From NCBI GenBank assembly GCA_963719465.1, contig OY970386.1:1369471-1433470 (forward strand): 64,000 nucleotides of DNA. The letters are read 5' to 3'. The position numbers were made by a program, and so were the translations under genes. This stretch comes from an uncultured Chloroflexia bacterium (lineage in GTDB: Bacteria; Chloroflexota; Dehalococcoidia; DSTF01; JALHUB01). Under the pieces are notes generated by a model. It was not told the origin of the DNA, searched no databases, and saw only the letters and a list, made by a program, of their open reading frames with translations. Within the stretch, counting starts at the first letter, position 1. Each line of letters opens with the position of its first letter. Positions 4,002-59,019 of the stretch are shown here, one piece after another.

Positions 4002-4472
4002 ATGAGGTCCATGGACAACGACTACGAGCTGAACGTTGCGGAGATCATCCAGACCGTCGAAACGGCGGAAGTGCTGACCCTCCGATTCGTGGTTCTCAGC
4101 CAGCGCCTCCTTATAGACACCCGCTACACTCCCATCGACGGCCCGATGCTCAAGCTCGTCACGCCGGTCAAGACGGCTGAAGAGCGTTTCCGCAGCCTGA
4201 AGCAGCTTCGCCCCCGCTTCCGCATTCCCGACAAGATCTGCTCCGTATGGTGGCCGAAGCACGTGGATAGCCTGGTGTCGTCCGGCATCTGGCCGGCGAT
4301 TGCCCGCCGCATCATCGATTCCGGCAGCCCGGGCGCGGCGCAGCTGTGCGAAGAGACGTTTCGCGAGCTGCTGGAGCTGGAGCGGGAAGAGATAAGAAAC
4401 GCCATCCTCGGCAAAGGGTATCAGGCGCTCTGGGAATGCTTCAGCCCGGACCAGCCTCGCAAGCAGCTCTGA
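4002..4472 (+). CDS. hypothetical protein
   Basis: 156-aa ORF in a slightly lower-GC patch, 4 nt upstream of the metallopeptidase gene. Confidence 0.5.
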   Translation: MRSMDNDYELNVAEIIQTVETAEVLTLRFVVLSQRLLIDTRYTPIDGPMLKLVTPVKTAEERFRSLKQLRPRFRIPDKICSVWWPKHVDSLVSSGIWPAIARRIIDSGSPGAAQLCEETFRELLELEREEIRNAILGKGYQALWECFSPDQPRKQL

Positions 4473-4476
4473 ACCT

Positions 4477-4863
4477 TTGTCCCCACGTCCTCGAATGAGC
4501 CCGCGTCGCTTTGACCGCCTCGTTGTTGCTGCTCTGGCGGAGATTCCGCCGCCCTTCGACGAGAAGCTGGCGAACGTCGATATCGTCGTGAAGCGACGGC
4601 CGAGCCCGGGCGATTACCGACGGGCGCACGCGAAGCCAGGCGAGAGGCTGTACGGGCTCTACGAAGGGGTTCCGCTGAGCGAGAGGGCGGGGAGCTTCGG
4701 TTTCGAGACGCCGGACAAGATCACGCTGTTCCGCGGGCCGCTGGAGCGCGACTTTCCGCAGGACGCGGACCTGAAGCGGGAGGTGCGGATCACGGTCCTG
4801 CACGAGATAGCACACTTCTTCGGGCTGTCGGACGAGTCGCTGGCGGAGATGGGCTTGGACTGA
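4477..4863 (+). CDS. metallopeptidase family protein (Zn-dependent, HExxH; zincin-like, DUF1025-type)
   Basis: 128 aa with a C-terminal HEIAHFFG motif typical of this small metallopeptidase family. Confidence 0.7.
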   Translation: MSPRPRMSPRRFDRLVVAALAEIPPPFDEKLANVDIVVKRRPSPGDYRRAHAKPGERLYGLYEGVPLSERAGSFGFETPDKITLFRGPLERDFPQDADLKREVRITVLHEIAHFFGLSDESLAEMGLD

Positions 4864-4908
4864 GGCGGCGGCAGCAGGCAAGGACAGGGCGCGAGCGGCT
4901 GTGCTAGA

Positions 4909-5433
4909 ATGCGCCTGAGCCAGGAGGGCGCTTTGGACGAGGAAGAGGGATCTCTGTCCGAGTACCGCGAGAGACTGGTCCCCACGGGGTCGCTCCGTAT
5001 TCTTCTGCTGGTACTGGCGGTCTGGGACTTCCTCGGCGGCGGCATCCAGCTTGCTCTGCACAGCTTCCTCGTGTCGATGAAGGACGGCGCGCCAAACGGG
5101 ATCATGGCGGGCAGGGCCTTCAGCGGCGCGCTCTTCATAACGGGCCTTCTCTACCTTTTCGCGGCGTTTCAACCGACGCGGTATCGCTTCATCCTCTGGC
5201 TGGCGGTCGCCGAGCAGCTGGTCGCCATCTGCACCGGCGTCTTTCATGGCGCGCGCGGCAACGTCTCCTGGGGCGGCGTGATCCTGCCGGTCGCCGTCGC
5301 GATTGCGCTGCTGATCCTGCTGCTGCTGAACTTCCCGCGCGGCCTGCCGGAGCCGGAAGAAGAGGAAGTCGGGGAAGAGGCGCTGCCGCCGGGAACAACT
5401 TCAGCGCCCGAGCCGCCGCCCGTCAAGCAATAG
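4909..5433 (+). CDS. hypothetical integral membrane protein with an acidic/Pro-rich tail
   Basis: 174 aa with 4 predicted TM helices; the 3' end overlaps the convergent glycerate kinase gene by about 30 nt, so the true start may be internal. Confidence 0.5.
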   Translation: MRLSQEGALDEEEGSLSEYRERLVPTGSLRILLLVLAVWDFLGGGIQLALHSFLVSMKDGAPNGIMAGRAFSGALFITGLLYLFAAFQPTRYRFILWLAVAEQLVAICTGVFHGARGNVSWGGVILPVAVAIALLILLLLNFPRGLPEPEEEEVGEEALPPGTTSAPEPPPVKQ

Positions 5434-6852: not shown

Positions 6853-8172
6853 GTGATTGCCGGAACCGCCGCAGAGAAGAGCGTCGAAAGCCGTTCGCCC
6901 GTGTCGCCGCTAACCGTGGCCGTGCTGACGGTGGGCTGCAAGCTCAACCAGGCCGAGTCGGAGGCGATAGCCGGAGAGCTGGGGAAGGCGGGCTGGCGCG
7001 TCGTTGACCGGGCGACGCAGGCCGACGCGTTCATAATCAACACCTGCGCGGTTACGCACGTGGCGGAGCGCAAGTCGCGGCATCTGGTCCGGCTGGCGCG
7101 ACGGCTCTCGCCCGGCGCTCGGATAGTCGTTACCGGTTGTCTGGCTGACAGGGCCGGGACTGACGCGTTGTCGGCGCTGGGAGCGGACGTGATCCTTGAG
7201 AATAGCGAGAAGGAACGTGCCGCCCACCTTTTGCTGAGGGTCCCGGCGGTGGACGGCGCTTCGGGCGGCGCCGGGCGGCTCCGGACACGGTCCTTCATCA
7301 AGATTCAGGAGGGCTGCGACGACGTCTGCGCGTTCTGCGTCGTGCCCCAGACGCGGGGCCGCGAGCGAAGCGTTCCCGTCGCCGACGTTCTGAGGGCTGT
7401 CAGGTCGGCGGAGGCGGATGGCGTGAAGGAAGTCGTGCTGACGGGCACGCAACTGGGCGCGTACGGCCGCGACGGCGGCAAGAGCGACCTGGCGGAGCTC
7501 ATCCGGCTGGTGCTCTCGGACAGCGACGTCCCGCGCGTTCACGTTTCCTCGCTGCAACCGCAAGACATTACGCCTTCCTTGCTCGACCTGTGGGGCGACC
7601 CGCGCCTGTGCCGCCATTTCCACGTCCCGCTGCAGAGCGGCAGCGACGGGGTGCTGGCGCGAATGCGGCGTCGCTACACGACGCGGCAGTTCGCTGAGGC
7701 GCTCGCAGAGATACGGCACCGCGTGCCTGACGCAGCCATCACCACCGACGTGCTGGTTGGCTTTCCGGGCGAATCGGACGAGGACTTCGAGGCGACACGC
7801 CGGCTCTGCCGCGAGGTCGGGTTCGCGGCGCTGCACGTCTTCCCGTTCTCGTCGCGGCCGGGGACGCTGGCCGCCGGGATGCCGGCTCAGGTGAGCGCGC
7901 AGGTCAAACGGGAGCGCGTGCGGCAGATGCTGGCGCTGGGCGAGGAGCTGCGAGCAGCGTTTCTTGCTCGGTTTCAGAGCGCGACCGCAGAAGTGCTTTT
8001 CGAGAAGAGGGTTCGCGGAGAAGCCGGCCAAATGCTGTGGGAAGGGCTGACCGACAACTACATCCGGGTGCTGGTGCCATCGGAGCAATCGCTGGTGAAT
8101 TGCATCGTGGCCGTGAAGCTGGGCGAGCGTCGCGGCGACAGCCTGCTCGGGGAGTGCAGGAGGGCAGGATGA
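6853..8172 (+). CDS. mtaB: MiaB-like tRNA methylthiotransferase (MtaB-type radical SAM)
   Basis: MTTase N-terminal domain plus a radical-SAM CxxxCxxC (CDDVCAFC); the first ~15 codons may be an N-terminal over-extension. Confidence 0.8.
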   Translation: MIAGTAAEKSVESRSPVSPLTVAVLTVGCKLNQAESEAIAGELGKAGWRVVDRATQADAFIINTCAVTHVAERKSRHLVRLARRLSPGARIVVTGCLADRAGTDALSALGADVILENSEKERAAHLLLRVPAVDGASGGAGRLRTRSFIKIQEGCDDVCAFCVVPQTRGRERSVPVADVLRAVRSAEADGVKEVVLTGTQLGAYGRDGGKSDLAELIRLVLSDSDVPRVHVSSLQPQDITPSLLDLWGDPRLCRHFHVPLQSGSDGVLARMRRRYTTRQFAEALAEIRHRVPDAAITTDVLVGFPGESDEDFEATRRLCREVGFAALHVFPFSSRPGTLAAGMPAQVSAQVKRERVRQMLALGEELRAAFLARFQSATAEVLFEKRVRGEAGQMLWEGLTDNYIRVLVPSEQSLVNCIVAVKLGERRGDSLLGECRRAG

Positions 8173-8888
8173 ACATACTGAATCGGGTCATTGTCGTCCT
8201 CGGCATCGTCGTGCTGATCCTGTTTGCGGTAATGCTCATCGTGCTGGCCTGGGCGTACAGCGGCGAGAGCATCCACCGGCTGAGCCTGTTCGTTCAGTAC
8301 CTGACCGACCACGACACGACGCTGCCGAAAGTGATAATCACGCTCGGCAGCGCTTTCGTCATCCTGATCGCCTTTGCCGCCCTGCTGATCGAAATCGTCC
8401 CGCGGGCCGACAAGACCGTGCTCGTGCGCGACGTGGGAGCGGGCACCGCCGTCCTTTCGACTGCGGCCGTGGCGCGGCGGCTGGAACAGCTCGTCGGGAC
8501 GCTGCCGGAAGTGGAGGCGGTGCGGGCGTCGGTAAGCCGGCGGAAGGACGCGGTCGAGGTGAACTTGCAGGTGATGGTGCACCCGGAAAGCGACCTGGCG
8601 ATGGTGGCGACCGAGGTGTCGCAGACGACGCAGGAGGGCGTCACAGAGCAGATGAGCGTTGCGCTGGCCAGGCCGCCGAAGCTTCGCCTCTACTATTCGT
8701 CCCGGCCGACGGCGTCGCGCGAGCACCCTTCGACAGCGGAAGAGCCACAGCAGGCGCGCCCCCGGCGGGCTGGAGCCGCGGCGCATCGTGAAGCGGGGAA
8801 GCCGCCCGCCGAACCGGCCAGCGAGGCCTCGCAGGCTGAACCCCCGCCACCTTCCGACGAAAGCGCCCCGCACGACGAGAAGCCATGA
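8169..8888 (+). CDS. hypothetical membrane protein with a Pro/Glu/Ala-rich C-terminal tail
   Basis: ATG at 8169 overlaps the mtaB stop (ATGA); two N-terminal TM helices, then a VxV-rich region. The track ORF 8037-8888 is an upstream over-extension. Confidence 0.55.
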   Translation: MNILNRVIVVLGIVVLILFAVMLIVLAWAYSGESIHRLSLFVQYLTDHDTTLPKVIITLGSAFVILIAFAALLIEIVPRADKTVLVRDVGAGTAVLSTAAVARRLEQLVGTLPEVEAVRASVSRRKDAVEVNLQVMVHPESDLAMVATEVSQTTQEGVTEQMSVALARPPKLRLYYSSRPTASREHPSTAEEPQQARPRRAGAAAHREAGKPPAEPASEASQAEPPPPSDESAPHDEKP

Positions 8889-12211: not shown

Positions 12212-13238
12212 TGTAGGGTTTCAGGAGATGTGAGACAGAAGGGAGGTGAATAACGTCGGGCCTGGGCTGTAGGCTAACGGAAAACGAAGCCCAATAACCT
12301 ACAGGAGGCCCGACATGCACAAAGCTCGCACACCCTGGCCCATCCAGACAAGAGCCGCCTACATCGCTGCGTTCGAGGAGGCGCGTCGGCAGTATCCCAG
12401 GCTCAGCGCCCGCATCTTTTGCCAGGCGGGAGAGGTGCCCCATTCGACCTTCTCTCGCTGGTGGGCGGCCTGGCGACGCCACGACAGGAGAGCGCTATCA
12501 GACCGCTCCCGCAGGCCTCACCGCTCGCCTACGGCCCTTTCAGGGCATGTTCTAGACATCATCCGCGGCGCCCATCGTAAATTCGGCTTCGGAGTAAAGA
12601 GGCTCCACGCGTATCTGACAAAGGCCGGGCTGATTACCTGCAGCGTTTCCAGTGTCTACAGAGTTCTCCGTCGCGCCGGCGCCCTCCTTGCCTGTCCCCG
12701 TAAACCTAAGCGTCTCTGGCTGCACTACGCCAAAGCTTCCCCCGGTGATCGGGCTCAGATGGACCTGCTCTATCTGCCGGAGGGTCGCTACCAACTGACC
12801 CTGGTCGACGATTGCAGCCGCGTTCTTGCCGCAACGGTTCTTTCCAGGCGCACCTGCGCCGCTGTCTGCAAAGCCCTGCCGTGCCTCCTGGAGACCATCC
12901 CGTTCGCAATTCGCTGCCTCCAGACTGATAACGGCCCTGAATTCTCAGGCGACCTCACTGCCCTTCTGAGGCGAAGAGGCATTCGCCACGTCCGGATCAG
13001 ACCCAGGACGCCTCATCTCAATGGCAAGGTGGAGAGAGTGCAGAGGACGATGCGAGAGGAGTTCTGGGATGGCGTTCTGGCGGGAACGGTCTTGGAGTGG
13101 GAGAAGGGGTTGCAGGCGTATGTGCGCTTCTACAACAAGAAACGGCTGCACAGTGCTCTTGGCTACAGCGCGCCGCTCGTGTACGCTCAGGAGCGTCTAC
13201 CTCAGGCCCGGATCTACCACATCTCCTGAAACCCTACA
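12212..13238 (+). mobile_element. IS481-family insertion sequence, copy 1 (1027 bp)
   Basis: 21-bp terminal inverted repeats TGTAGGGTTTCAGGAGATGTG (12212-12232; reverse complement at 13218-13238), flanked by a 15-16 bp direct repeat TCGGTTGATCGCCCT(T) at 12197-12211 and 13239-13254. Confidence 0.9.
12315..13229 (+). CDS. IS481-family transposase (DDE integrase core)
   Basis: 304 aa; identical to the 41.3-kb copy through residue ~300 (the last residues differ after a 1-nt difference); N-terminal HTH plus an rve-like core. Confidence 0.9.
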   Translation: MHKARTPWPIQTRAAYIAAFEEARRQYPRLSARIFCQAGEVPHSTFSRWWAAWRRHDRRALSDRSRRPHRSPTALSGHVLDIIRGAHRKFGFGVKRLHAYLTKAGLITCSVSSVYRVLRRAGALLACPRKPKRLWLHYAKASPGDRAQMDLLYLPEGRYQLTLVDDCSRVLAATVLSRRTCAAVCKALPCLLETIPFAIRCLQTDNGPEFSGDLTALLRRRGIRHVRIRPRTPHLNGKVERVQRTMREEFWDGVLAGTVLEWEKGLQAYVRFYNKKRLHSALGYSAPLVYAQERLPQARIYHIS

Positions 13239-13374: not shown

Positions 13375-13452
13375 GTGGGCGTAGCCGAGCGGTTTAAGGC
13401 GCCAGGTTGTGGCCCTGGAGATCGAGGGTTCGAATCCCTCCGTCCACCCCAG
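13375..13452 (+). tRNA. tRNA-His (anticodon GTG)
   Basis: Hand-folded cloverleaf: extra G-1 pairs with discriminator C73 (a His hallmark), anticodon loop TTGTGGC, T-loop TTCGAAT, CCA encoded. Confidence 0.85.
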
Positions 13453-13484: not shown

Positions 13485-14429
13485 ATGATATTCAAGGCAG
13501 ATTCTCCACCGAAGCGCCTTCGACTCATTCTATCGACCGCGTTCCTGGGCCTCGCGATTGCCGGGGCGCTCGTCTGCGTGGCTTGCGGAGGCGGCGGCGG
13601 CTCGAACAGCAAGGCCCAGGCCATCATTCAGAAGTTCATCGAAGCCAGCCAGAGCCCGGACACGCAGAGCCAGGTGGTGCTGGGCAAGGTCCCGGATGAT
13701 TTCCCGGCCAACGTGCCTGTCTATCCCGGCTCTAGCCTTCTCGGGTCCGTCGTCACCACCGGCAGCGGCGGCAGCTTGAAGGCGGACAGTGTGCTGCGTG
13801 AGACGAGTGATGCGGTCGGCGACGTGTACGCGTTCTACGAGCAGGCGTTCGATACGTCGCCGTGGCAGATTCAGGCGTCGACGTCGCCGGGCAAGGTCGC
13901 GGCAATCCAGTACGGGAACACCGATGATCCTAACCTGGCCGGCACGCTGGTGATACAACCGGAAAGCAGCGGCGGGTCGGTCATTTATGTGTCGATTCAG
14001 ATGGCTGCCACCGAGACGCCGACAGCCGAACCCTTCACGCCGGCCCCGAGCAAGCCGCTGCCGCACGGCTGGCCGTCGCAGATTCCCATCTATCCGAACG
14101 CCACCATCGCCGATACGGCCTGGTCGCGCTCGAGCGGCAGCATGCAGTGGCAGATCTCGCTTCTCGCTGTCACAACGTCAAAGGACATGATCCAGTACTA
14201 TCGAACGCAACTATCGAACGTAGGCTTCACGGTGACGAGCCAGCCGGACCAGAACGGCGTATCGACTGCCTCGTTCCAGAATACGCTGGTGTCACCGCCC
14301 TGGAGCGGGACGGTAACGACGCAGACGTTCGCTCAAGACCCAACGTACGCGCAGGCGGTGATTCAGTTGCAGATCGGCTCCGGGACGCCTCAGCCAACGT
14401 CGCAGCCGTCAGGTACGGCGACTCCGTAG
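13485..14429 (+). CDS. hypothetical lipoprotein with two tandem homologous ~110-aa domains
   Basis: Signal peptide with lipobox LVCVAC; the two halves share P..P.YP..., D.Y.FY/YY and GT.V.Q motifs; Thr/Ser/Gln-rich. Confidence 0.6.
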   Translation: MIFKADSPPKRLRLILSTAFLGLAIAGALVCVACGGGGGSNSKAQAIIQKFIEASQSPDTQSQVVLGKVPDDFPANVPVYPGSSLLGSVVTTGSGGSLKADSVLRETSDAVGDVYAFYEQAFDTSPWQIQASTSPGKVAAIQYGNTDDPNLAGTLVIQPESSGGSVIYVSIQMAATETPTAEPFTPAPSKPLPHGWPSQIPIYPNATIADTAWSRSSGSMQWQISLLAVTTSKDMIQYYRTQLSNVGFTVTSQPDQNGVSTASFQNTLVSPPWSGTVTTQTFAQDPTYAQAVIQLQIGSGTPQPTSQPSGTATP

Positions 14430-46544: not shown

Positions 46545-47591
46545 CTAGGTCAGGATGACGCGACCGTTCACCTGCGCAACGATCTGGCCGACGGGCAACG
46601 CCTCCGGCACGAGCGACCGCACCTTCTCGACGTCGCCCCGCGCGCAGACCAGCACCATGCCGAGGCCCATGTTGAAGACGTGGAACATCTCGTCGTCGCT
46701 CACGTTACCTTCTCGCTGGATGAGGGTAAAGATGGGCGGGACCTTCCAGGTCGACCGCTCGAAGCGGGCGGCGAGGCCTCCCGGCAGGACGCGCGGCACG
46801 TTGTCGACGAGGCCGCCGCCGGTTATGTGGGCGATGCCCTTCAGATCCGCGAGCGCCGGCTTCACGTCTCGATAATAGCAGCGATGCGGCGCCAGCAGCG
46901 CCTCGCCGAGGGTGACGCCAAGCTCGGGATAGGTGCGATAGAGCGCCGCCTTCTCCGCTTCCGGGTCGCCGCCGAGGCCCACGTTGAACATGCGCCTGGC
47001 GAGCGAGTAGCCGTTGGTGTGGAGGCCGTTCGAAGGGAGGCCGAGCAATGCGTCGCCCTCGCGGATGGACGAGCCGTCGAGTATTGCGTCGCGCTCCACG
47101 ACGCCGACGATAAAGCCGGCGAGGTCGAAGGCGCGCGGGAGGTAGACGTCCGGCATGTCCGCCGTCTCGCCGCCGGTGAGCGCGCAGCCGACGTCCCGGC
47201 AGGCGGAGGCCATGCCTCGCACGATCGCCACTTTGGCGTCTTCATGAAGGTTGGCGCTGGCGATGTAGTCGAGGAAGAAGAGCGGCTCGGCGCCGGTGGT
47301 GAGGATGTCGTTGACGGAGTGGTTGACGAGGTCGATGCCGACGGTATCGAAGCGACCCATGGCGACGGCGAGGTTCAGCTTGGTGCCGACGCCGTCGGCG
47401 CTGGCGACGAGCACGGGCTCGCGATAGCCGGCGAGGCGAAAGAGTGAGGCGAACGGGCCGACGCCGGCGAGCACCTCCGGCCGGCGCGTCGAGGCGACGA
47501 TCTCCTTGATGCGCGCCGCAAGCCGGCTCCCGGCATCGATGTCTACGCCGGCGGCGATGTACGTTTGGCGACTGTCGTTGGCTGCGCTCAC
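46545..47591 (-). CDS. purM: phosphoribosylformylglycinamidine cyclo-ligase (AIR synthetase)
   Basis: 348 aa, canonical PurM. Confidence 0.95.
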   Translation of the reverse strand: MSAANDSRQTYIAAGVDIDAGSRLAARIKEIVASTRRPEVLAGVGPFASLFRLAGYREPVLVASADGVGTKLNLAVAMGRFDTVGIDLVNHSVNDILTTGAEPLFFLDYIASANLHEDAKVAIVRGMASACRDVGCALTGGETADMPDVYLPRAFDLAGFIVGVVERDAILDGSSIREGDALLGLPSNGLHTNGYSLARRMFNVGLGGDPEAEKAALYRTYPELGVTLGEALLAPHRCYYRDVKPALADLKGIAHITGGGLVDNVPRVLPGGLAARFERSTWKVPPIFTLIQREGNVSDDEMFHVFNMGLGMVLVCARGDVEKVRSLVPEALPVGQIVAQVNGRVILT

Positions 47592-47641
47592 GGGGTCCTT
47601 CGGAGCTGGGCAACTGGCCTTCGGCGGAACAGGCCCGAACG

Positions 47642-49099
47642 TCAGCTAGAGAACGGGATGGGCGCGCTCTCCACCCACTCGAAGTCGTGGCGGTCGCGAG
47701 CGGAGGGCGGCGCTTCCAGGGCGAGCTTGTCCATCTGCAGCGGCACCGGCAGCGGGTAGTCGCCGCTGAAGCAGGCCAGGCAGAACGTATCCTGCGGCAA
47801 CCCGATCGATTCCACGAGACCCTCGAGGCTGAGATAGCCGAGGCTGTCGGCGTCGATGTGCTCGCGAATCTCCGGCACGGTCTTCTGAGCGGCGATGAGC
47901 TCCCAGCGGGCCGCCATGTCGACGCCGAGGAAGCAGGGGTAGGTGATGGGCGGCGCGGTGATGCGCATGTGCACCTCGCGGGCACCGGCCCGGCGTATCA
48001 TGTCGACCACGCGCGGGGTCGTCGTGCCACGGACGATGCTGTCATCGACGACGACGACGCGCTTTCCGCCGAGGATCTCCGGCAGCGGGTTGAACTTGAG
48101 CTGCACGCCGACCTCGCGGATGCGCTGGTCGGGCATAATGAACGTCCGGCCGACGTAGCGGTTCTTGACAAGCCCTTCGACGAAGGGGATGCCCGACGCC
48201 TGCGAGTAGCCGATGGCGGCGGCGATGGCGGAGTCCGGCACGCCCATCACAACGTCGGCATCGACCGGGTATTCGCGCGCCAGGCGGGCGCCCATCGCCA
48301 TGCGGACCGGGTAGAGCAGTTTGCCACGGATGACACTGTCCGGGCGGGCGAAGTAGATGTACTCGAAGACGCAGAAGGCGCAGCGATTGCTCTCCAGCGG
48401 GCGGAAGCTGCGGACGCCGCGGCTGCCTATCTGGACGACCTCGCCGGGTTCGACTTCGCGGAGGAAGGTTGCGCCGAGGTGGTCGAAGGCGCAGCTTTCG
48501 GAGGCGACGACCCAGCCGCCGTTCAGCCGCCCCAGGCAAAGCGGCCGCACGCCCAGCGGGTCCCGCACGGCGAAGAGCGTGTCGGGCGTGAGGACGACGA
48601 GGCAGTAGGCGCCCTGGACGCGTCGCATCATGTGGGCGAAGCGCTGCGGCCAGGAGTCGCCGGGAGCGAAGGCGAGGATGCGGGCCATGACCTCAGAGTC
48701 GGTGGCGGTGCGGAACTCGTGGCCTTCCTGCTCGAGGTCGACGCGGAGCATCTCGGCGTTGACCAGGTTGCCGTTGTGGCCGAGAGCTATTTCGCCGTTG
48801 GGACCGGCGACACGGAATGGCTGGGCGTTCTTGTACTGGCTGGAGCCGGTAGTGGAGTAGCGGTTGTGGCCGATGGCCATGTTGCCGCGGAGGTGAGCGA
48901 GATCCTCTTCGTCGAAGACCTGGGAGACGAGGCCCATGCCGACGCGGCTGTGGAGCTCATGGCCGTCGGCTGTGGCAATCCCCGCGCTCTCCTGGCCTCG
49001 GTGTTGGAGCGCGTACAGGCCGTAGAAGGCCAGTCTTGCGGCATCTTCACCACTAGCGCTGACCCCGAAGACGCCGCAGTATTCGCGGGGACTGGACAC
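47642..49099 (-). CDS. purF: amidophosphoribosyltransferase
   Basis: 485 aa; N-terminal nucleophile Cys in CGVFGV, PRTase motif, C-terminal Cys cluster. Confidence 0.95.
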   Translation of the reverse strand: MSSPREYCGVFGVSASGEDAARLAFYGLYALQHRGQESAGIATADGHELHSRVGMGLVSQVFDEEDLAHLRGNMAIGHNRYSTTGSSQYKNAQPFRVAGPNGEIALGHNGNLVNAEMLRVDLEQEGHEFRTATDSEVMARILAFAPGDSWPQRFAHMMRRVQGAYCLVVLTPDTLFAVRDPLGVRPLCLGRLNGGWVVASESCAFDHLGATFLREVEPGEVVQIGSRGVRSFRPLESNRCAFCVFEYIYFARPDSVIRGKLLYPVRMAMGARLAREYPVDADVVMGVPDSAIAAAIGYSQASGIPFVEGLVKNRYVGRTFIMPDQRIREVGVQLKFNPLPEILGGKRVVVVDDSIVRGTTTPRVVDMIRRAGAREVHMRITAPPITYPCFLGVDMAARWELIAAQKTVPEIREHIDADSLGYLSLEGLVESIGLPQDTFCLACFSGDYPLPVPLQMDKLALEAPPSARDRHDFEWVESAPIPFSS

Positions 49100-52442: not shown

Positions 52443-53264
52443 TCAGGATTTGACGGCGACGACCTGGAGCCAGTTGCGGGGGACGGTCGATAGTTTCAGG
52501 TCGCGGAAGGCTTCGGCGGCGGCGCGTCGCAGGCAGTCGACGGCGACAGAGAGCGGGACGCCGGGCAGGGCGCCGCGGGCAAACAGCTCATACTCGCTGA
52601 TCGCTTGAAAGCCCTCCAGCGGCATCTCCACGGGGCATAGCTCGAGCGTCCGCACGGCAAAGCCACCGTCGGCAAGCAGGCTGCGGTATTCGTCGACGCT
52701 GAGCTGGATGCGCGCCTGCGCCCTCTCCTCTTTCTCGCGTCGCACGTCGGGGTGCTCGTCACGAAAGATGCGCATGGCGCGCCGCACCCACAGGATGTAG
52801 AAGGGCATGGTGTCCGCCGGCTGCGCGCCCTCGAAGAAGGTGCTGTTGAAGGCGAAGAGGCCGCGCTCCCGCAGGGCCTCCGATACTTCGTGCAGCATGC
52901 GCTTCTTGTCCTCGACGAGGTGGATGGCGTTGCAGAAGACGACGGCGTCGGCGGTGCGCTGGACGAAGCGCGACAGGTTTTCCGCCTTGCCGGAGCAAAA
53001 CCGAACGACGGCGCCCCAGCGCTCCTGAAGGTCCTTTCGGGCGAGCTCCAGCGCCGAGTCGGACGGCTCGACGGCGACGACTTCGCCCCTGTCGGGGCGC
53101 ATCGACTCCAGGATGAGCGTGGTGACCGCGCCGGTGCCGGCGCCGAGGTCGACGACGCGCTGCGAGGGCTTGAAGGCGCACATCTCGACCAGCCGGCGGT
53201 TGATTGCCGTGTAGAACGGCTGGCTGGCGAACTTCCGGAAGGAGTTTCCCTCTAGCTCCGTCAT
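52443..53264 (-). CDS. class I SAM-dependent methyltransferase
   Basis: 273 aa with SAM-binding motif VVDLGAGTGAV. Confidence 0.8.
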   Translation of the reverse strand: MTELEGNSFRKFASQPFYTAINRRLVEMCAFKPSQRVVDLGAGTGAVTTLILESMRPDRGEVVAVEPSDSALELARKDLQERWGAVVRFCSGKAENLSRFVQRTADAVVFCNAIHLVEDKKRMLHEVSEALRERGLFAFNSTFFEGAQPADTMPFYILWVRRAMRIFRDEHPDVRREKEERAQARIQLSVDEYRSLLADGGFAVRTLELCPVEMPLEGFQAISEYELFARGALPGVPLSVAVDCLRRAAAEAFRDLKLSTVPRNWLQVVAVKS

Positions 53265-55493: not shown

Positions 55494-56408
55494 ATGCAAT
55501 CCGCGATTATCGTCAAGGGTCTGAGGAAGAGCTACGGCCCGGTTGAGGCCGTGCGCGGCATCGATCTCGATGTCCACGTCGGCGAGATATTCGCCCTGCT
55601 CGGGCCGAACGGCGCCGGCAAGACGACGACGGTGGAGATTCTGGAAGGGTATCGCCGGCGCGATGGCGGCGAGGTGAGCGTGCTGGGCCAGGACCCCGCC
55701 TCGAACGCGCTGGACCTGAAGCGCAGAATCGGGATAGTGCTGCAAAGCACGGGCGTGCAGCCGTACCTGACGGTCGAAGAGAGCATCGAGCTCTTCCGTG
55801 GCTATTACCCGAATCCTCTTCCGCTCGATGACATCATCGAGGCCGTGGGACTGAAGGAGAAACGTAAGTCGCTCGTTCGGCGGATGTCGGGAGGCGAGCA
55901 ACGACGCCTGGATGTCGCGATCGGGCTGGCGGGCAACCCCGAGCTGCTGTTCCTCGACGAGCCGACGACTGGGTTCGATCCGTCCGCCCGACGACACGCC
56001 TGGGAGATGGTGAAGAACCTGGAGTCGCTGGGCAAGACCGTGGTGCTGACGACGCACTATATGGACGAGGCGCAGTTCCTGGCGGAGCGGGTCGCGATCA
56101 TGGTGGACGGGCGAATCGCCGCCGAGGGCGCGCCGGACGCTTTGAGGCGGATGGACGCGACAACGAAGATCAGCTTCCGCCTGCCCGCCGGCGTCGAGCT
56201 GCCGGATGCCATGCGCGCAGAGGCGAAAGTCGAAGCGGGGCTGGTGTCGCTGGAGGCGCTGGAGCCGACGCGGACTCTTCATGCGCTGACCTCGTGGGCG
56301 GTGGAGCAGGGCGTCGAGCTGGAGCAGCTGGCGGTCTCGCGGGCGTCGCTCGAGGACATCTACCTGGAGCTGGCGAAGGGCTCGGAGCAGGAGGGGGCAA
56401 CGGCGTGA
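55494..56408 (+). CDS. ABC transporter ATP-binding protein (ABC-2/DrrA-like exporter ATPase)
   Basis: Walker A GPNGAGKTT, MSGGEQRRL signature. Confidence 0.85.
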   Translation: MQSAIIVKGLRKSYGPVEAVRGIDLDVHVGEIFALLGPNGAGKTTTVEILEGYRRRDGGEVSVLGQDPASNALDLKRRIGIVLQSTGVQPYLTVEESIELFRGYYPNPLPLDDIIEAVGLKEKRKSLVRRMSGGEQRRLDVAIGLAGNPELLFLDEPTTGFDPSARRHAWEMVKNLESLGKTVVLTTHYMDEAQFLAERVAIMVDGRIAAEGAPDALRRMDATTKISFRLPAGVELPDAMRAEAKVEAGLVSLEALEPTRTLHALTSWAVEQGVELEQLAVSRASLEDIYLELAKGSEQEGATA

Positions 56409-57175
56409 ACGCTCTGAGACTGACGCTGCGACAGGTCTACTACGAGAACCGCGCCTTCTGGCGCAATCCGCAGTCGGCGTTTTTCACCTTCGCCTTCCCG
56501 CTGCTGTTCCTGGTCGTGTTCAACTCGATCTTCGGGAGCCACAACGTCGACGAGAGCGGCGGGACGATTAATGGGTCGACGTTCTACGTGCCGGCGATCG
56601 TCGCGGTGGCGGTGATCTTCGGCTGCTACAGCAATCTGGCGATCAGCATCTCGCTGGCGAGGGACCAGGGAGTTCTCAAGCGCGTTCGGGGCACGCCTCT
56701 GCCGGCGGCGGCGTACATCGGCGGGCGGATCGTGCACTCGACGCTGGTGGCGGTGGTGGTGGTTCTGATTGTGCTCGTCGTTGGGCGGGTCGTCTACAAC
56801 GTGCCGATACCAGGCCACACGCTGCCGGCGTTTCTGCTGGCGCTGGTGGTCGGCGCCGCGTGCTTCTGCAGCCTGGGTCTGGCGATCACGACCGTCATCG
56901 GGAACGCGGACGCGGCGAATCCGATTGTCAACGCCTCGGTGCTGCCGCTTCTGTTCATTTCGAACGTGTTTATCCCTCTATCGCCGCCGAAGTGGCTGGA
57001 CGTGATCGCGGAAGTGTTTCCGGTGAAGCACTTCGCGGACGCGTTGCACACGTCGTTCAGTCCGTTCGTGACGGGGTCCGCCTTCCAGTGGGGCGACATG
57101 GCGGTGATGGCCGTGTGGGGAGTAATCGCGGCGCGGATAGCGGTCAGGTTCTTCTCGTGGGAGCCGCGCCGCTAG
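56405..57175 (+). CDS. ABC-2 family transporter permease
   Basis: GTG start overlapping the ATPase stop; 6 TM segments. The track ORF 56294-57175 is over-extended upstream. Confidence 0.75.
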   Translation: MNALRLTLRQVYYENRAFWRNPQSAFFTFAFPLLFLVVFNSIFGSHNVDESGGTINGSTFYVPAIVAVAVIFGCYSNLAISISLARDQGVLKRVRGTPLPAAAYIGGRIVHSTLVAVVVVLIVLVVGRVVYNVPIPGHTLPAFLLALVVGAACFCSLGLAITTVIGNADAANPIVNASVLPLLFISNVFIPLSPPKWLDVIAEVFPVKHFADALHTSFSPFVTGSAFQWGDMAVMAVWGVIAARIAVRFFSWEPRR

Positions 57176-57213: not shown

Positions 57214-57311
57214 TGGCGGGAGTGGGTGGGAGTCGAACCCACCCGGGACGGCGCAGGCCGCCCCGCAACGATTTTGAAGACCGCGAGACCCACCGGGACC
57301 CATCCACTCCC
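57214..57311 (-). tRNA. selC: tRNA-Sec (selenocysteine, anticodon TCA) candidate
   Basis: Hand-folded 98-nt tRNA: 8-bp acceptor GGGAGTGG/CCACTCCC, 5-bp T-stem with loop TTCGACT, anticodon loop CTTCAAA, long variable arm with a 7-8 bp stem, discriminator G, CCA encoded. The D-stem is G-U rich. Aligns nearly column-for-column with E. coli selC (D-loop CGGT, CTTCAAA and ...GTCCCGG-GTGGG-TTCGACTCC... shared). Confidence 0.65.
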
Positions 57312-57672
57312 GCAGACCAGTATATGAATGCCCTGGGGAGGGGTCAAAAAGAGGCTGACGGCGGGAGTTCGGAGGTGTGAGAGTATGGGTTGACGGCCGG
57401 CGTTTGTCCGCTACAATTGCAGATGGTAGTGGGGACGGCTGAGGCCAAGCTCATCCCCAAGATATGCGCTGCTCGTATCAATACCTGACTGATGGTCCCT
57501 CAGCCGTCTCTGAGAAATCGTAGAGCCGTGAGCAGCGAGCCGGTCAAGTAGAGTACTTTGCAACTCTACATAATCTAACAAGCGGTTGAGCCCCAGCGGC
57601 CGGCTAGGCTTGCGCTTAGGGTCGGGGCAAACGGTTCGGTCTCCGGAAGGTCAAGCTCAGGTTCAAGTCTGA

Positions 57673-57716
57673 AGACCGCGAGAGCCACCGGGACCCATCC
57701 ACTCCCGCAGATTGTT
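57673..57716 (-). repeat. 44-bp direct repeat (1 mismatch) of the selC 5' half plus 4 upstream nt; second copy of 57277-57320
   Basis: TGAAGACCGCGAGA(C/G)CCACCGGGACCCATCCACTCCCGCAGA occurs at both sites; copy B abuts the trxB stop codon. Confidence 0.8.
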
Positions 57717-58656
57717 ACGAAGGCGGCGTCCAGGCGCCGAACTTCTCGCCGATGTACTTGTCGGCGCGAATGGCCGCCGTCGCGCCGTCACCGGCCGAGC
57801 TGACGACCTGACGCGCCGCGCCGCTGCGGACGTCGCCGGCGGCGAAGATGCCGGGGACGCTGGTTTCCATCCACTCGTTGACGATAACGTAGCCGGCCTC
57901 GTCCATGGCGACGACGCCCCGCAGGTAGTCGATATTCGGCTGCTGCCCGATGAAAACGAAGAGGCCTGTGAGCTCGAGAGACGATTCCTCATCGCTTTCG
58001 AAGTTGCGCAGCCTGACGCCGCTTACCATACCATCACCCTGCACTTCAGTGACAACGGTGTTCCAAAGGAAGTCGATCTTGGGCTCGGCGAAGGCGCGCT
58101 CCTGCAGTATGGGCGCGGCGCGCAGCCGGTCGCGACGGTGGATGACGTGGACTTTCGAGGCGTAGCGGCTGAGGAAGACGGCTTCGTCCAGGGCCGCGTC
58201 GCCGCCACCGACGACCGCGACCTCCTGTCCACGGAAGAAGGCGGCGTCGCAGGTCGCGCAGTAGGAGACGCCGCGTCCGATGAGGCGCTCTTCGCCCGCG
58301 ACGCCGAGGCGCTTGTAGCCGGCGCCGCCGGCGGCGATGACGGTTTTCGTGTAGAACTCGCCCTCGCTGGTCTTGACGAGGAAATGGTTGTCCTCGGCGG
58401 GCTCGACGGAATCGGCCATGGCGTAGGTGGCGAGGAGGCCGTATTTTTCGCCTTGCTTGAGCATGGCCTGGGAGAGGTCGTAGCCGTTGATGCCGTCAGG
58501 GAAGCCAGGGTAGTTTTCGACGACGGCGGTGAGGGCGATCTGACCGCCAACGACGCCTTTTTCGAGTAATACAGTGCAGCGGCGGGCGCGGGATGCGTAG
58601 AGGCCTGCCGTCAGGCCGGCGGGCCCGGCGCCTATTATCACAACGTCGCAATCCAT
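57715..58656 (-). CDS. trxB: thioredoxin-disulfide reductase
   Basis: Canonical TrxB from MDCDVVIIGAGPAGL with the redox-active CATC; the track ORF starts 9 codons upstream. Confidence 0.9.
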   Translation of the reverse strand: MDCDVVIIGAGPAGLTAGLYASRARRCTVLLEKGVVGGQIALTAVVENYPGFPDGINGYDLSQAMLKQGEKYGLLATYAMADSVEPAEDNHFLVKTSEGEFYTKTVIAAGGAGYKRLGVAGEERLIGRGVSYCATCDAAFFRGQEVAVVGGGDAALDEAVFLSRYASKVHVIHRRDRLRAAPILQERAFAEPKIDFLWNTVVTEVQGDGMVSGVRLRNFESDEESSLELTGLFVFIGQQPNIDYLRGVVAMDEAGYVIVNEWMETSVPGIFAAGDVRSGAARQVVSSAGDGATAAIRADKYIGEKFGAWTPPS

Positions 58657-58692
58657 GCGCTTGTGTGGTTCCAAGGGCTGCAATCGAGTTCT

Positions 58693-59019
58693 CTAGCTGA
58701 TGGCGCTCTCGATATTCTTCTTGAGCTCCGTCTTGGGACGAAAGCCGATGACCTGGCTGACTGGCTTGCCGGCCTTGAAGATGATGAGCGTCGGGATGCT
58801 GCGGATGCCGTAGTTCATGGCCGTCGAGGGGCTCTCGTCGGTGTTGAGCTTGACGAAGTCCATCTTGCCGGCGAAGTCGCCTGCCAGCTCTTCGACCAGC
58901 GGCGATACCATTCGGCAGGGGCCGCACCAGGGCGCCCAGAAATCCACGAGCACGGGCAGGGTGGAGTTCAGCACCTCTTTGCTGAAGGTCGCGTCCGTGA
59001 CATCTCTTACGCTTGCCAT
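58693..59019 (-). CDS. trxA: thioredoxin
   Basis: 108 aa with the WCGPC active site. Confidence 0.95.
   Translation of the reverse strand: MASVRDVTDATFSKEVLNSTLPVLVDFWAPWCGPCRMVSPLVEELAGDFAGKMDFVKLNTDESPSTAMNYGIRSIPTLIIFKAGKPVSQVIGFRPKTELKKNIESAIS

Follow-up and report, generated by a model that had tools for sequence, protein, structure and literature searches.

A canonical selC gene downstream of trxA-trxB in a Chloroflexota bacterium, with a 395-bp insertion between trxB and selC

tRNA-Sec, its look-alikes and selC as an integration site

Selenoproteins have been listed in Chloroflexi, and the selenocysteine (Sec) trait has often been gained and lost (PMC1794560). Two Dehalococcoidia metagenome-assembled genomes (MAGs), with 49 and 46 selenoprotein genes, are among the most selenoprotein-rich bacteria (PMC13326102). 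Mukai et al. (PMC5389517) describe (8/4) tRNA-Sec, selC*-type tRNA-Cys, which has U73 and a GCA or UCA anticodon, and allo-tRNAs, in which the acceptor/T branch has 12 bp divided 8/4 or 9/3. The gene that is the subject of this analysis lies in a 64-kb stretch of DNA from an uncultured Chloroflexota bacterium (here called the window, at its full length). The tRNA that it encodes resembles these three in its general Sec-like build (the variable arm and the D stem are both long, and there is a tetraloop) but differs from them in its 8/5 branch, its G73 and its lack of a bulge.

A closer likeness is to E. coli selC and to the Rfam tRNA-Sec family (RF01852), with which the window tRNA shares the 13-bp 8/5 branch, the 6-bp D stem with a CGGU loop, the CUUCAAA anticodon loop, the long variable arm, G73 and the encoded CCA. 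(The E. coli reference was fetched by its coordinates in NC_000913.3; blastn of the window tRNA against E. coli genomes gave no match, the query being too short and divergent.) The two genes have 59 identities in 95 aligned positions (62%) and only three gap columns, all of them in the loop of the variable arm, which bears out the nearly column-for-column match claimed in a preliminary description of this locus. The differences from E. coli selC lie in three conserved G.U pairs of the D stem, in G.U pairs at 27:43 and 30:40, in a longer variable-arm stem (9 bp), and in the first two pairs of the T stem, which are G-C and U-A in the window tRNA and G.U and C-G in E. coli. The setting differs as well: the window selC lies downstream of trxA-trxB, whereas E. 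coli selC is free-standing.

In Enterobacteria, the genomic islands LEE and SHI-2 integrate at selC. Tyrosine integrases that target tRNA genes are the subject of Williams 2002 (as cited in PMC6563490 and PMC1635311), and there are documented, if rare, cases in which it is the 5' part of such a gene that recombines (Zhao and Williams 2002, as cited in PMC6563490). As will be described below, selC in the window is accompanied by an insertion that invites comparison with both. Like the enterobacterial selC islands and the targets of tRNA-directed integrases, it would have selC as the integration site, and it has a repeated tRNA fragment with its boundary in the anticodon loop; unlike them, it has the 5' half duplicated, an insert of only 353 bp and no integrase. 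With 5'-targeting integration, as that process is represented by the citation of Zhao and Williams (2002), it has in common the replacement of the 5' part of the tRNA, with the displaced fragment on the far side, and also, in the place where incoming DNA must bring a promoter, a site that resembles one, immediately before the restored selC. The difference is that the window has neither integrase nor cargo; what it holds would be at most a decayed remnant, and no membership in that class is claimed.

Identity, fold and conservation of the tRNA

The gene is on the minus strand at 57214..57311. ARAGORN calls a tRNA-SeC with the anticodon tca at exactly those positions, which are also the ones given in the preliminary description (the strand was not given there). 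The Rfam tRNA-Sec model aligns along its whole length (positions 1-91 of 91) with 57311..57218, scoring 71.6 bits (E=1e-12) against a gathering score of 47, and is retained over RF00005 in competition within the tRNA clan. Both analyses had been suggested as checks of the original proposal; ARAGORN returned tRNA-SeC(UCA), and the covariance model placed the sequence in tRNA-Sec and not in a non-Sec class. These results, together with the covariation analysis below, specify an intact selC encoding tRNA-Sec(UCA), 98 nt long with G73 and the encoded CCA.

Read from the sequence, the acceptor stem is GGGAGUGG/CCACUCCC (8 bp), followed by an A-U linker, and the T stem is GUGGG/CCCAC (5 bp). The acceptor/T branch accordingly has 13 bp (8/5), all of them Watson-Crick and G8-C66 included. 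The D stem, GGGUCC/GGGUCU, has 6 bp, three of which are G.U pairs, and is capped by the loop CGGU. The anticodon stem has 5 bp (G.U, C-G, G-C, G.U and U-A) and its 7-nt loop, CUUCAAA, presents UCA. The variable-arm stem has 9 bp, and the discriminator G73 is followed by CCA. The preliminary description had given the Sec-specific 8-bp acceptor/5-bp T-stem geometry, the anticodon loop, the D stem with its 4-nt loop and G73 as they are found here; it had put the stem of the long extra arm at about 7-8 bp. A long variable arm and G73 are identity elements for SerRS. The sequence of the base pairs that constitute the EF-Tu antideterminant in E. coli is not kept in the window tRNA, and this bears on EF-Tu rejection neither way.

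Relatives of the tRNA were collected with two search keys. The anticodon-arm 24-mer, searched against one genome per species, yielded 14 loci (L001-L014), nearly all of them from MAGs labelled Dehalococcoidia, Chloroflexia or Chloroflexota out of soil and peat projects, and a metagenome scan with the 5' 22-mer of the tRNA yielded at least 120 further loci. ARAGORN calls tRNA-SeC in 126 of the 134 loci listed, with 61 distinct sequences, all UCA and nearly all with G73 and CCA. The alignment for the covariation analysis comprised 61 distinct sequences, made up of the window tRNA, E. coli selC and 59 relatives, and the cloverleaf that was tested on it is the one written from the window sequence.

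That cloverleaf is well supported: 96.1% of the cells pair (82.0% in shuffled alignments and at most 60% with slid partners), both sides have changed in 25 of the 33 pairs, and the covariation score is 0.400 (0.145 shuffled, at most 0.091 slid). Compensatory changes are found in all nine pairs of the variable arm, 98.4% of whose cells pair, and in all five pairs of the anticodon stem. In the T stem, pair 72:86 covaries, being A-U in 33 sequences and U-A in 22. The 5' 22 nt served as the search key and are therefore invariant in the metagenome relatives, which leaves variation in the acceptor and D stems under-sampled; with that reservation, 100% of the D-stem cells pair, and for five of its six pairs at least one sequence has both partners changed. 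The anticodon-loop positions (CUUCAAA) are invariant in 61 of 61, and in the family alignment the discriminator G is invariant too.

The preliminary description had attached a caveat to the three G-U pairs of the D stem and to homopolymer errors in the assembly. The caveat falls away. Pair 11:26 is G.U in 54 of the 61 sequences, pair 14:23 is U.G in 53, and pair 13:24 is G.U in 34 and G-C in 26; among the matches listed, moreover, the full 98-nt sequence is found unchanged in 19 independent public contigs. Judged by the alignment, the three G.U pairs are conserved features of the family and not sequencing or homopolymer errors.

The family has its quirks. The 8th acceptor pair (alignment columns 8 and 88) is G opposite G in 50 of the 61 distinct tRNAs (for example L025, L024 and L058), but G-C in the window copy and nine others. 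Pair 27:43 is G.U in most of the sequences and an unpaired A opposite C in 13. These features may be related to the unusual tRNA-Sec forms of Chloroflexi that are described in PMC5389517.

Those forms, which are of the (8/4) type, and the prevalence of G opposite G at the 8th acceptor position among the relatives are also what would favour taking the window tRNA for a look-alike, that is, a selC*-type tRNA-Cys(UCA) or an allo-tRNA that suppresses UGA independently of SelA and SelB; such tRNAs do get picked up by tRNA-Sec searches. The details of the window tRNA point the other way. Its G73 excludes a tRNA-Cys of the selC* type, which would have U73, and its perfect 13-bp 8/5 branch with G8-C66 excludes an allo-tRNA, with its 12-bp branch. 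The tRNA-Sec model score is far above the gathering score, and a selA-selB-selD cluster encloses a sister tRNA (at locus L049, described below). We consider a look-alike to be extremely improbable.

The conservation of the gene can be set against that of its neighbour: at loci with a comparable trxB, the tRNA is identical in 98 of 98 positions where the adjacent trxB has only 73-83% nucleotide identity. This indicates strong purifying selection on selC and argues against its being a relic, a matter that is taken up in the next section.

Selenocysteine machinery and selenoprotein genes

If the tRNA functions as its E. coli counterpart does, SerRS would charge it with serine by way of the long variable arm and G73, SelA would convert the serine to selenocysteine with selenophosphate from SelD, and SelB would deliver the product wherever an in-frame UGA codon has a SECIS hairpin behind it. 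SelA, SelB and SelD are not encoded close by. The preliminary description had remarked that the window contains no sel genes, and tblastn with E. coli SelA, SelB and SelD indeed finds nothing in its 64 kb, nor does it find selA, selB or selD at L001-L014. A weak SelB-like match at L004 is, by reading of its translation, a TypA/BipA-type GTPase. The AIRS-family protein encoded at 46545-47645 is PurM and not SelD: it scores 361 bits with TIGR00878 and 28 with the SelD model (cut-off 125), and its position between purF and purH places it in the same way.

The related statement that the window has no obvious selenoprotein gene has also held. In-frame TGA codons with a coding signal on both sides, and C- and N-terminal extensions through TGA, yielded no credible candidate in the window. 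An all-against-all comparison for Sec/Cys pairs among TGA-read-through ORFs of the window and the 134 loci gave only off-frame noise, and a scan of coding potential across TGA produced no credible selenoprotein, either in the window or across related loci that add up to about 0.78 Mb. Several individual candidates were considered and discarded. The adjacent reading frames 4396-4863 and 4864-5433 are not a gene split by TGA: the first holds a complete Zincin_1 domain and a separate gene follows. The methyltransferase encoded at 52443-53264 lacks the C-terminus of an MduS CxxU-type selenoprotein. TGA-x-x-stop endings at 8170-8178 (in a MiaB-like radical SAM gene) and at 56406-56414 (in an ABC ATPase gene) resemble those of 'UXX-star' selenoproteins, but two such endings among roughly two dozen TGA-terminated genes are about what chance provides, and both were rejected for that reason.

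One could take the lack of sel and selenoprotein genes, in the window and equally at the 14 genome loci that surround this tRNA, as a sign that selC is a relic, in a genome that has no selA, selB, selD or selenoproteins and does not read UGA as Sec; the frequent gain and loss of the Sec trait (PMC1794560) would be in keeping with that. The absence has little weight, since the window would make up no more than about 2-3% of a genome as large as the related MAG chromosomes (~2.2 Mb). The identity of the tRNA across species in 98 of 98 positions, beside trxB genes that are 73-83% identical, is incompatible with neutral decay. At the insertion that is analysed in the next section, the displaced copy of the 5' half already has one substitution in 42 nt while the intact copy has none, and a promoter-like site still lies directly upstream of selC after the insertion. 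A relic gene is, in our judgement, improbable.

Sec machinery does appear next to sister tRNAs. At L049 (6522-10627), selD on the plus strand is followed by selC, selA and selB on the minus strand, making a complete cluster around a sister tRNA-Sec, and at L124 selA and selB lie beside tRNA-Sec. The L049 and L124 tRNAs share the 5' 22-mer and are 85% identical to the window tRNA overall; E. coli proteins match the machinery at these two loci with 37-42% identity and E-values from 1e-55 to 1e-76. Among the best 120 matches to the L049 SelA, the closest named homologues are those of Candidatus Limnocylindrales (Chloroflexota); all 120 are Limnocylindrales-like and none is tied to the MAGs with the identical tRNA. 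The L049 cluster belongs to a different class of Chloroflexota from the organism of the window.

The presence of selA, selB and selD in the window's own genome is nevertheless a well-supported inference, which draws on the invariance of the tRNA, its compensatory fold, the L049 cluster and the published use of Sec in Chloroflexi and Dehalococcoidia. In our assessment, this Chloroflexota bacterium of soil or peat, probably a member of the Dehalococcoidia, very likely has its functional selC at 57311..57214 (minus strand). The identification of selC is correct but ordinary, since default tRNA and Rfam annotation already detects the gene and the group was already known for its use of Sec. For selenocysteine biology there is nothing new in a canonical tRNA with identical copies in public MAGs, from a phylum already known for Sec. 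The gene does serve as a flag for Sec-aware gene calling on this genome; in some Dehalococcoidia, standard callers cut short dozens of selenoprotein genes at their UGA codons. There are also two modest by-products, a widespread trx-selC linkage in Chloroflexota and the standing of selC as a recombination hot spot in the clade, and it is to these that we now turn.

The trxA-trxB neighbourhood and the 395-bp insertion

An ABC-2 transporter gene pair (55494-57175) converges on the 3' end of the tRNA, with asd and dapA beyond it. On the other side, on the same strand as selC, lie trxB (57715..58683, minus; thioredoxin-disulfide reductase, with 375.3 bits for TIGR01292 against a cut-off of 343.45 and a match to Pfam Pyr_redox_2) and trxA (58693..59019, minus; thioredoxin, with 128 bits for TIGR01068 against a cut-off of 96.8 and a match to Pfam PF00085), the first gene of the trxA-trxB-selC series. 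The adjacency of selC to trxB, a point of the preliminary description, is thereby confirmed, yet 403 nt separate the trxB stop from the start of the tRNA, and within this gap lies a truncated second copy of the 5' part of the tRNA that had been missed.

Such proximity to thioredoxin genes is common among the relatives. Among the 104 listed loci with enough upstream sequence, 81 have trxA or trxB directly upstream of selC on the same strand, and the gap is 120 nt or less in 48 of those 81. The loci with this linkage come from soil, sediment and marine metagenomes (for example L008 1092-2502, L018 2304-2760 and L051 1128-2530). In the closest relatives, L001, L005, L008 and L011, the tRNA starts 12-18 nt past the trxB stop. 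The closest flanking sequences are those of L008 (83.6% identity over 5.3 kb) and L002; on the 3' side of selC there is no synteny between any two of the species compared. trxA and/or trxB followed by selC appears to be the usual, clade-wide arrangement, and the extent of the linkage suggests that tRNA-Sec is co-expressed, or co-transcribed, with the thioredoxin system in the clade. By default the tRNA would probably be made by read-through and processing of the trx transcript.

A sub-lineage has a gene of about 400 aa between trxB and selC (L009 339-1535; L002 292-1509, minus strand; L006 1-1378), and selC at these three loci has its own conserved TTGACG-18-TATACT about 31 nt upstream. The trxB-selC gap of about 1.5 kb that results was considered as a possible instance of the insertion found in the window, and was rejected as such: the ~400-aa gene is unrelated and there is no half-copy of the tRNA.

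Relative to the ancestral arrangement, as it is seen at L001, L005, L008 and L011, the window has a 395-bp insertion between trxB and selC. It is bounded by a 42-nt direct repeat, each copy of which comprises 5 nt of upstream sequence and tRNA positions 1-37, to A36 of the anticodon. Copy A (57275..57316, minus) is part of the intact gene. Copy B (57670..57711, minus), a truncated and non-functional 5' part of selC that ARAGORN does not call, begins 3 nt past the trxB stop with TCTGC; it is 98% identical to copy A, the single mismatch being a G to C change in the 3' strand of the D stem. The left context of copy B, TAACAATCTGC followed by GGGAG, matches that of the intact gene at L008, which marks the 395 bp as an insertion.

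The unique inserted segment is the 353 bp between the repeats (57317..57669), which are absent where selC directly follows trxB (L001, L005, L008 and L011). Its GC content is 57%, in comparison with about 65% for the window. It contains no ORF of more than 56 aa, and hence no integrase gene, has no terminal inverted repeats, matches no Rfam family up to E=10, and folds no better than its shuffles on either strand (z-scores of 0.04 and 0.46). Exact-match scans, which miss diverged copies, found no other copy of the insert in the window, the 134 loci, viral contigs or metagenome contigs (the last of these by the junction 22-mer).

What the insert does contain is two sigma70-like sites, against 0.3 expected in the 2 kb that were scanned for the consensus, in which these two were the only ones found. 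One of them, TTGACC-17 nt-TATACT (57319..57347, minus; 10 of 12 consensus matches), has its -10 hexamer ending 7 nt before the mature 5' end of the tRNA. The other, TTGACG-16 nt-TACAAT (57390..57417, plus), points toward trxB in the antisense direction and away from the tRNA. Whatever the origin of the insertion, transcription of selC here probably starts at its own promoter and not at that of trxAB.

At least 10 related loci (L088 4012-5136, L020 4188-5306, L077, L087, L030, L044, L135, L095, L099 and L039) have a tyrosine-integrase gene that points towards the 3' end of tRNA-Sec at a distance of 70-140 nt, and these arrangements clearly mark selC as a recurrent recombination target in this clade, where genomic islands integrate. 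A tblastn search with the L088 integrase has no match in the window. L004 has a partial duplication of another kind: about 70 nt after the intact gene, the 3' part of tRNA-Sec is partly repeated in diverged form (478-545), from the anticodon loop onward, and a second copy of the downstream flank comes next, as would be expected of a partial duplication in tandem.

How did the insertion in the window arise? Its boundary in the anticodon loop, the repeat of a tRNA fragment (42 nt, 98%) flanking it and the empty sites at L001, L005, L008 and L011 together make up the signature of site-specific integration at a tRNA gene. There are two misfits to the usual form of such integration: it is the 5' half of the gene, not the 3' half, that is duplicated, and there is no integrase. 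A tentative reading, to which we would give somewhat less than an even chance, is that the insertion is what remains, after decay, of an integrative element whose recombination with selC, in the rare 'reversed' orientation, took place at the anticodon loop and involved the 5' half of the gene. Selection may then have kept only the new 5' half of the gene and the promoter that the element had carried in.

About evenly poised is the judgement on whether the insertion is instead no footprint of a mobile element at all, having come from illegitimate recombination or repair with filler DNA, or from a local artefact of long-read assembly. An insert that has no integrase, ORF or terminal inverted repeats and no second copy in the scans already described is in keeping with such an origin; the closely related loci stem from nanopore MAG projects, and at L004 the other half of selC has undergone what is apparently a simple tandem partial duplication. 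Set against this are, first, the position of the repeat boundary, in the anticodon loop after A36, one of the classic crossover positions of integrases that target tRNA genes. Second, the promoter-like site of the insert stands before selC, exactly where an element that replaces a tRNA gene's 5' part must supply a promoter. Third, the integrase genes beside selC in at least 10 related loci mark it as a target of recombination in the clade, and finally, 353 bp of unique sequence and a single mismatch between the repeats would be atypical of an artefact in which a repeat has been collapsed or expanded.

The history of the locus is probably as follows. Insertion of the 395 bp at the anticodon-loop position of selC displaced the old 5' half, which became a dead fragment beside trxB, and supplied a new 5' half together with the sigma70-like promoter, from which selC is now probably transcribed on its own. 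On the reading of the insertion as the remnant of an integrative element, selC would have been rewired from a co-transcript of trxA-trxB to an independent gene, and the locus would be a natural case in which a tRNA that is essential for Sec has had its promoter permanently replaced by a mobile element.

Two other places in the window may be mentioned in passing. A lower-GC stretch contains a gene for an IS481-family transposase (12315-13229, plus), which with 199.6 bits for NF033577 is just under the cut-off of 224. It lies just upstream of tRNA-His (13375-13451), and an unannotatable ORF of 314 aa (13485-14429) lies between that tRNA and tRNA-Arg. Near the beginning of the window, an ORF of 321 aa (1456-2421, minus), which has no match in Pfam or NCBIfam, is preceded by a SAM riboswitch (2512-2627, minus; RF00162, 73.8 bits) and is a predicted SAM-regulated gene.
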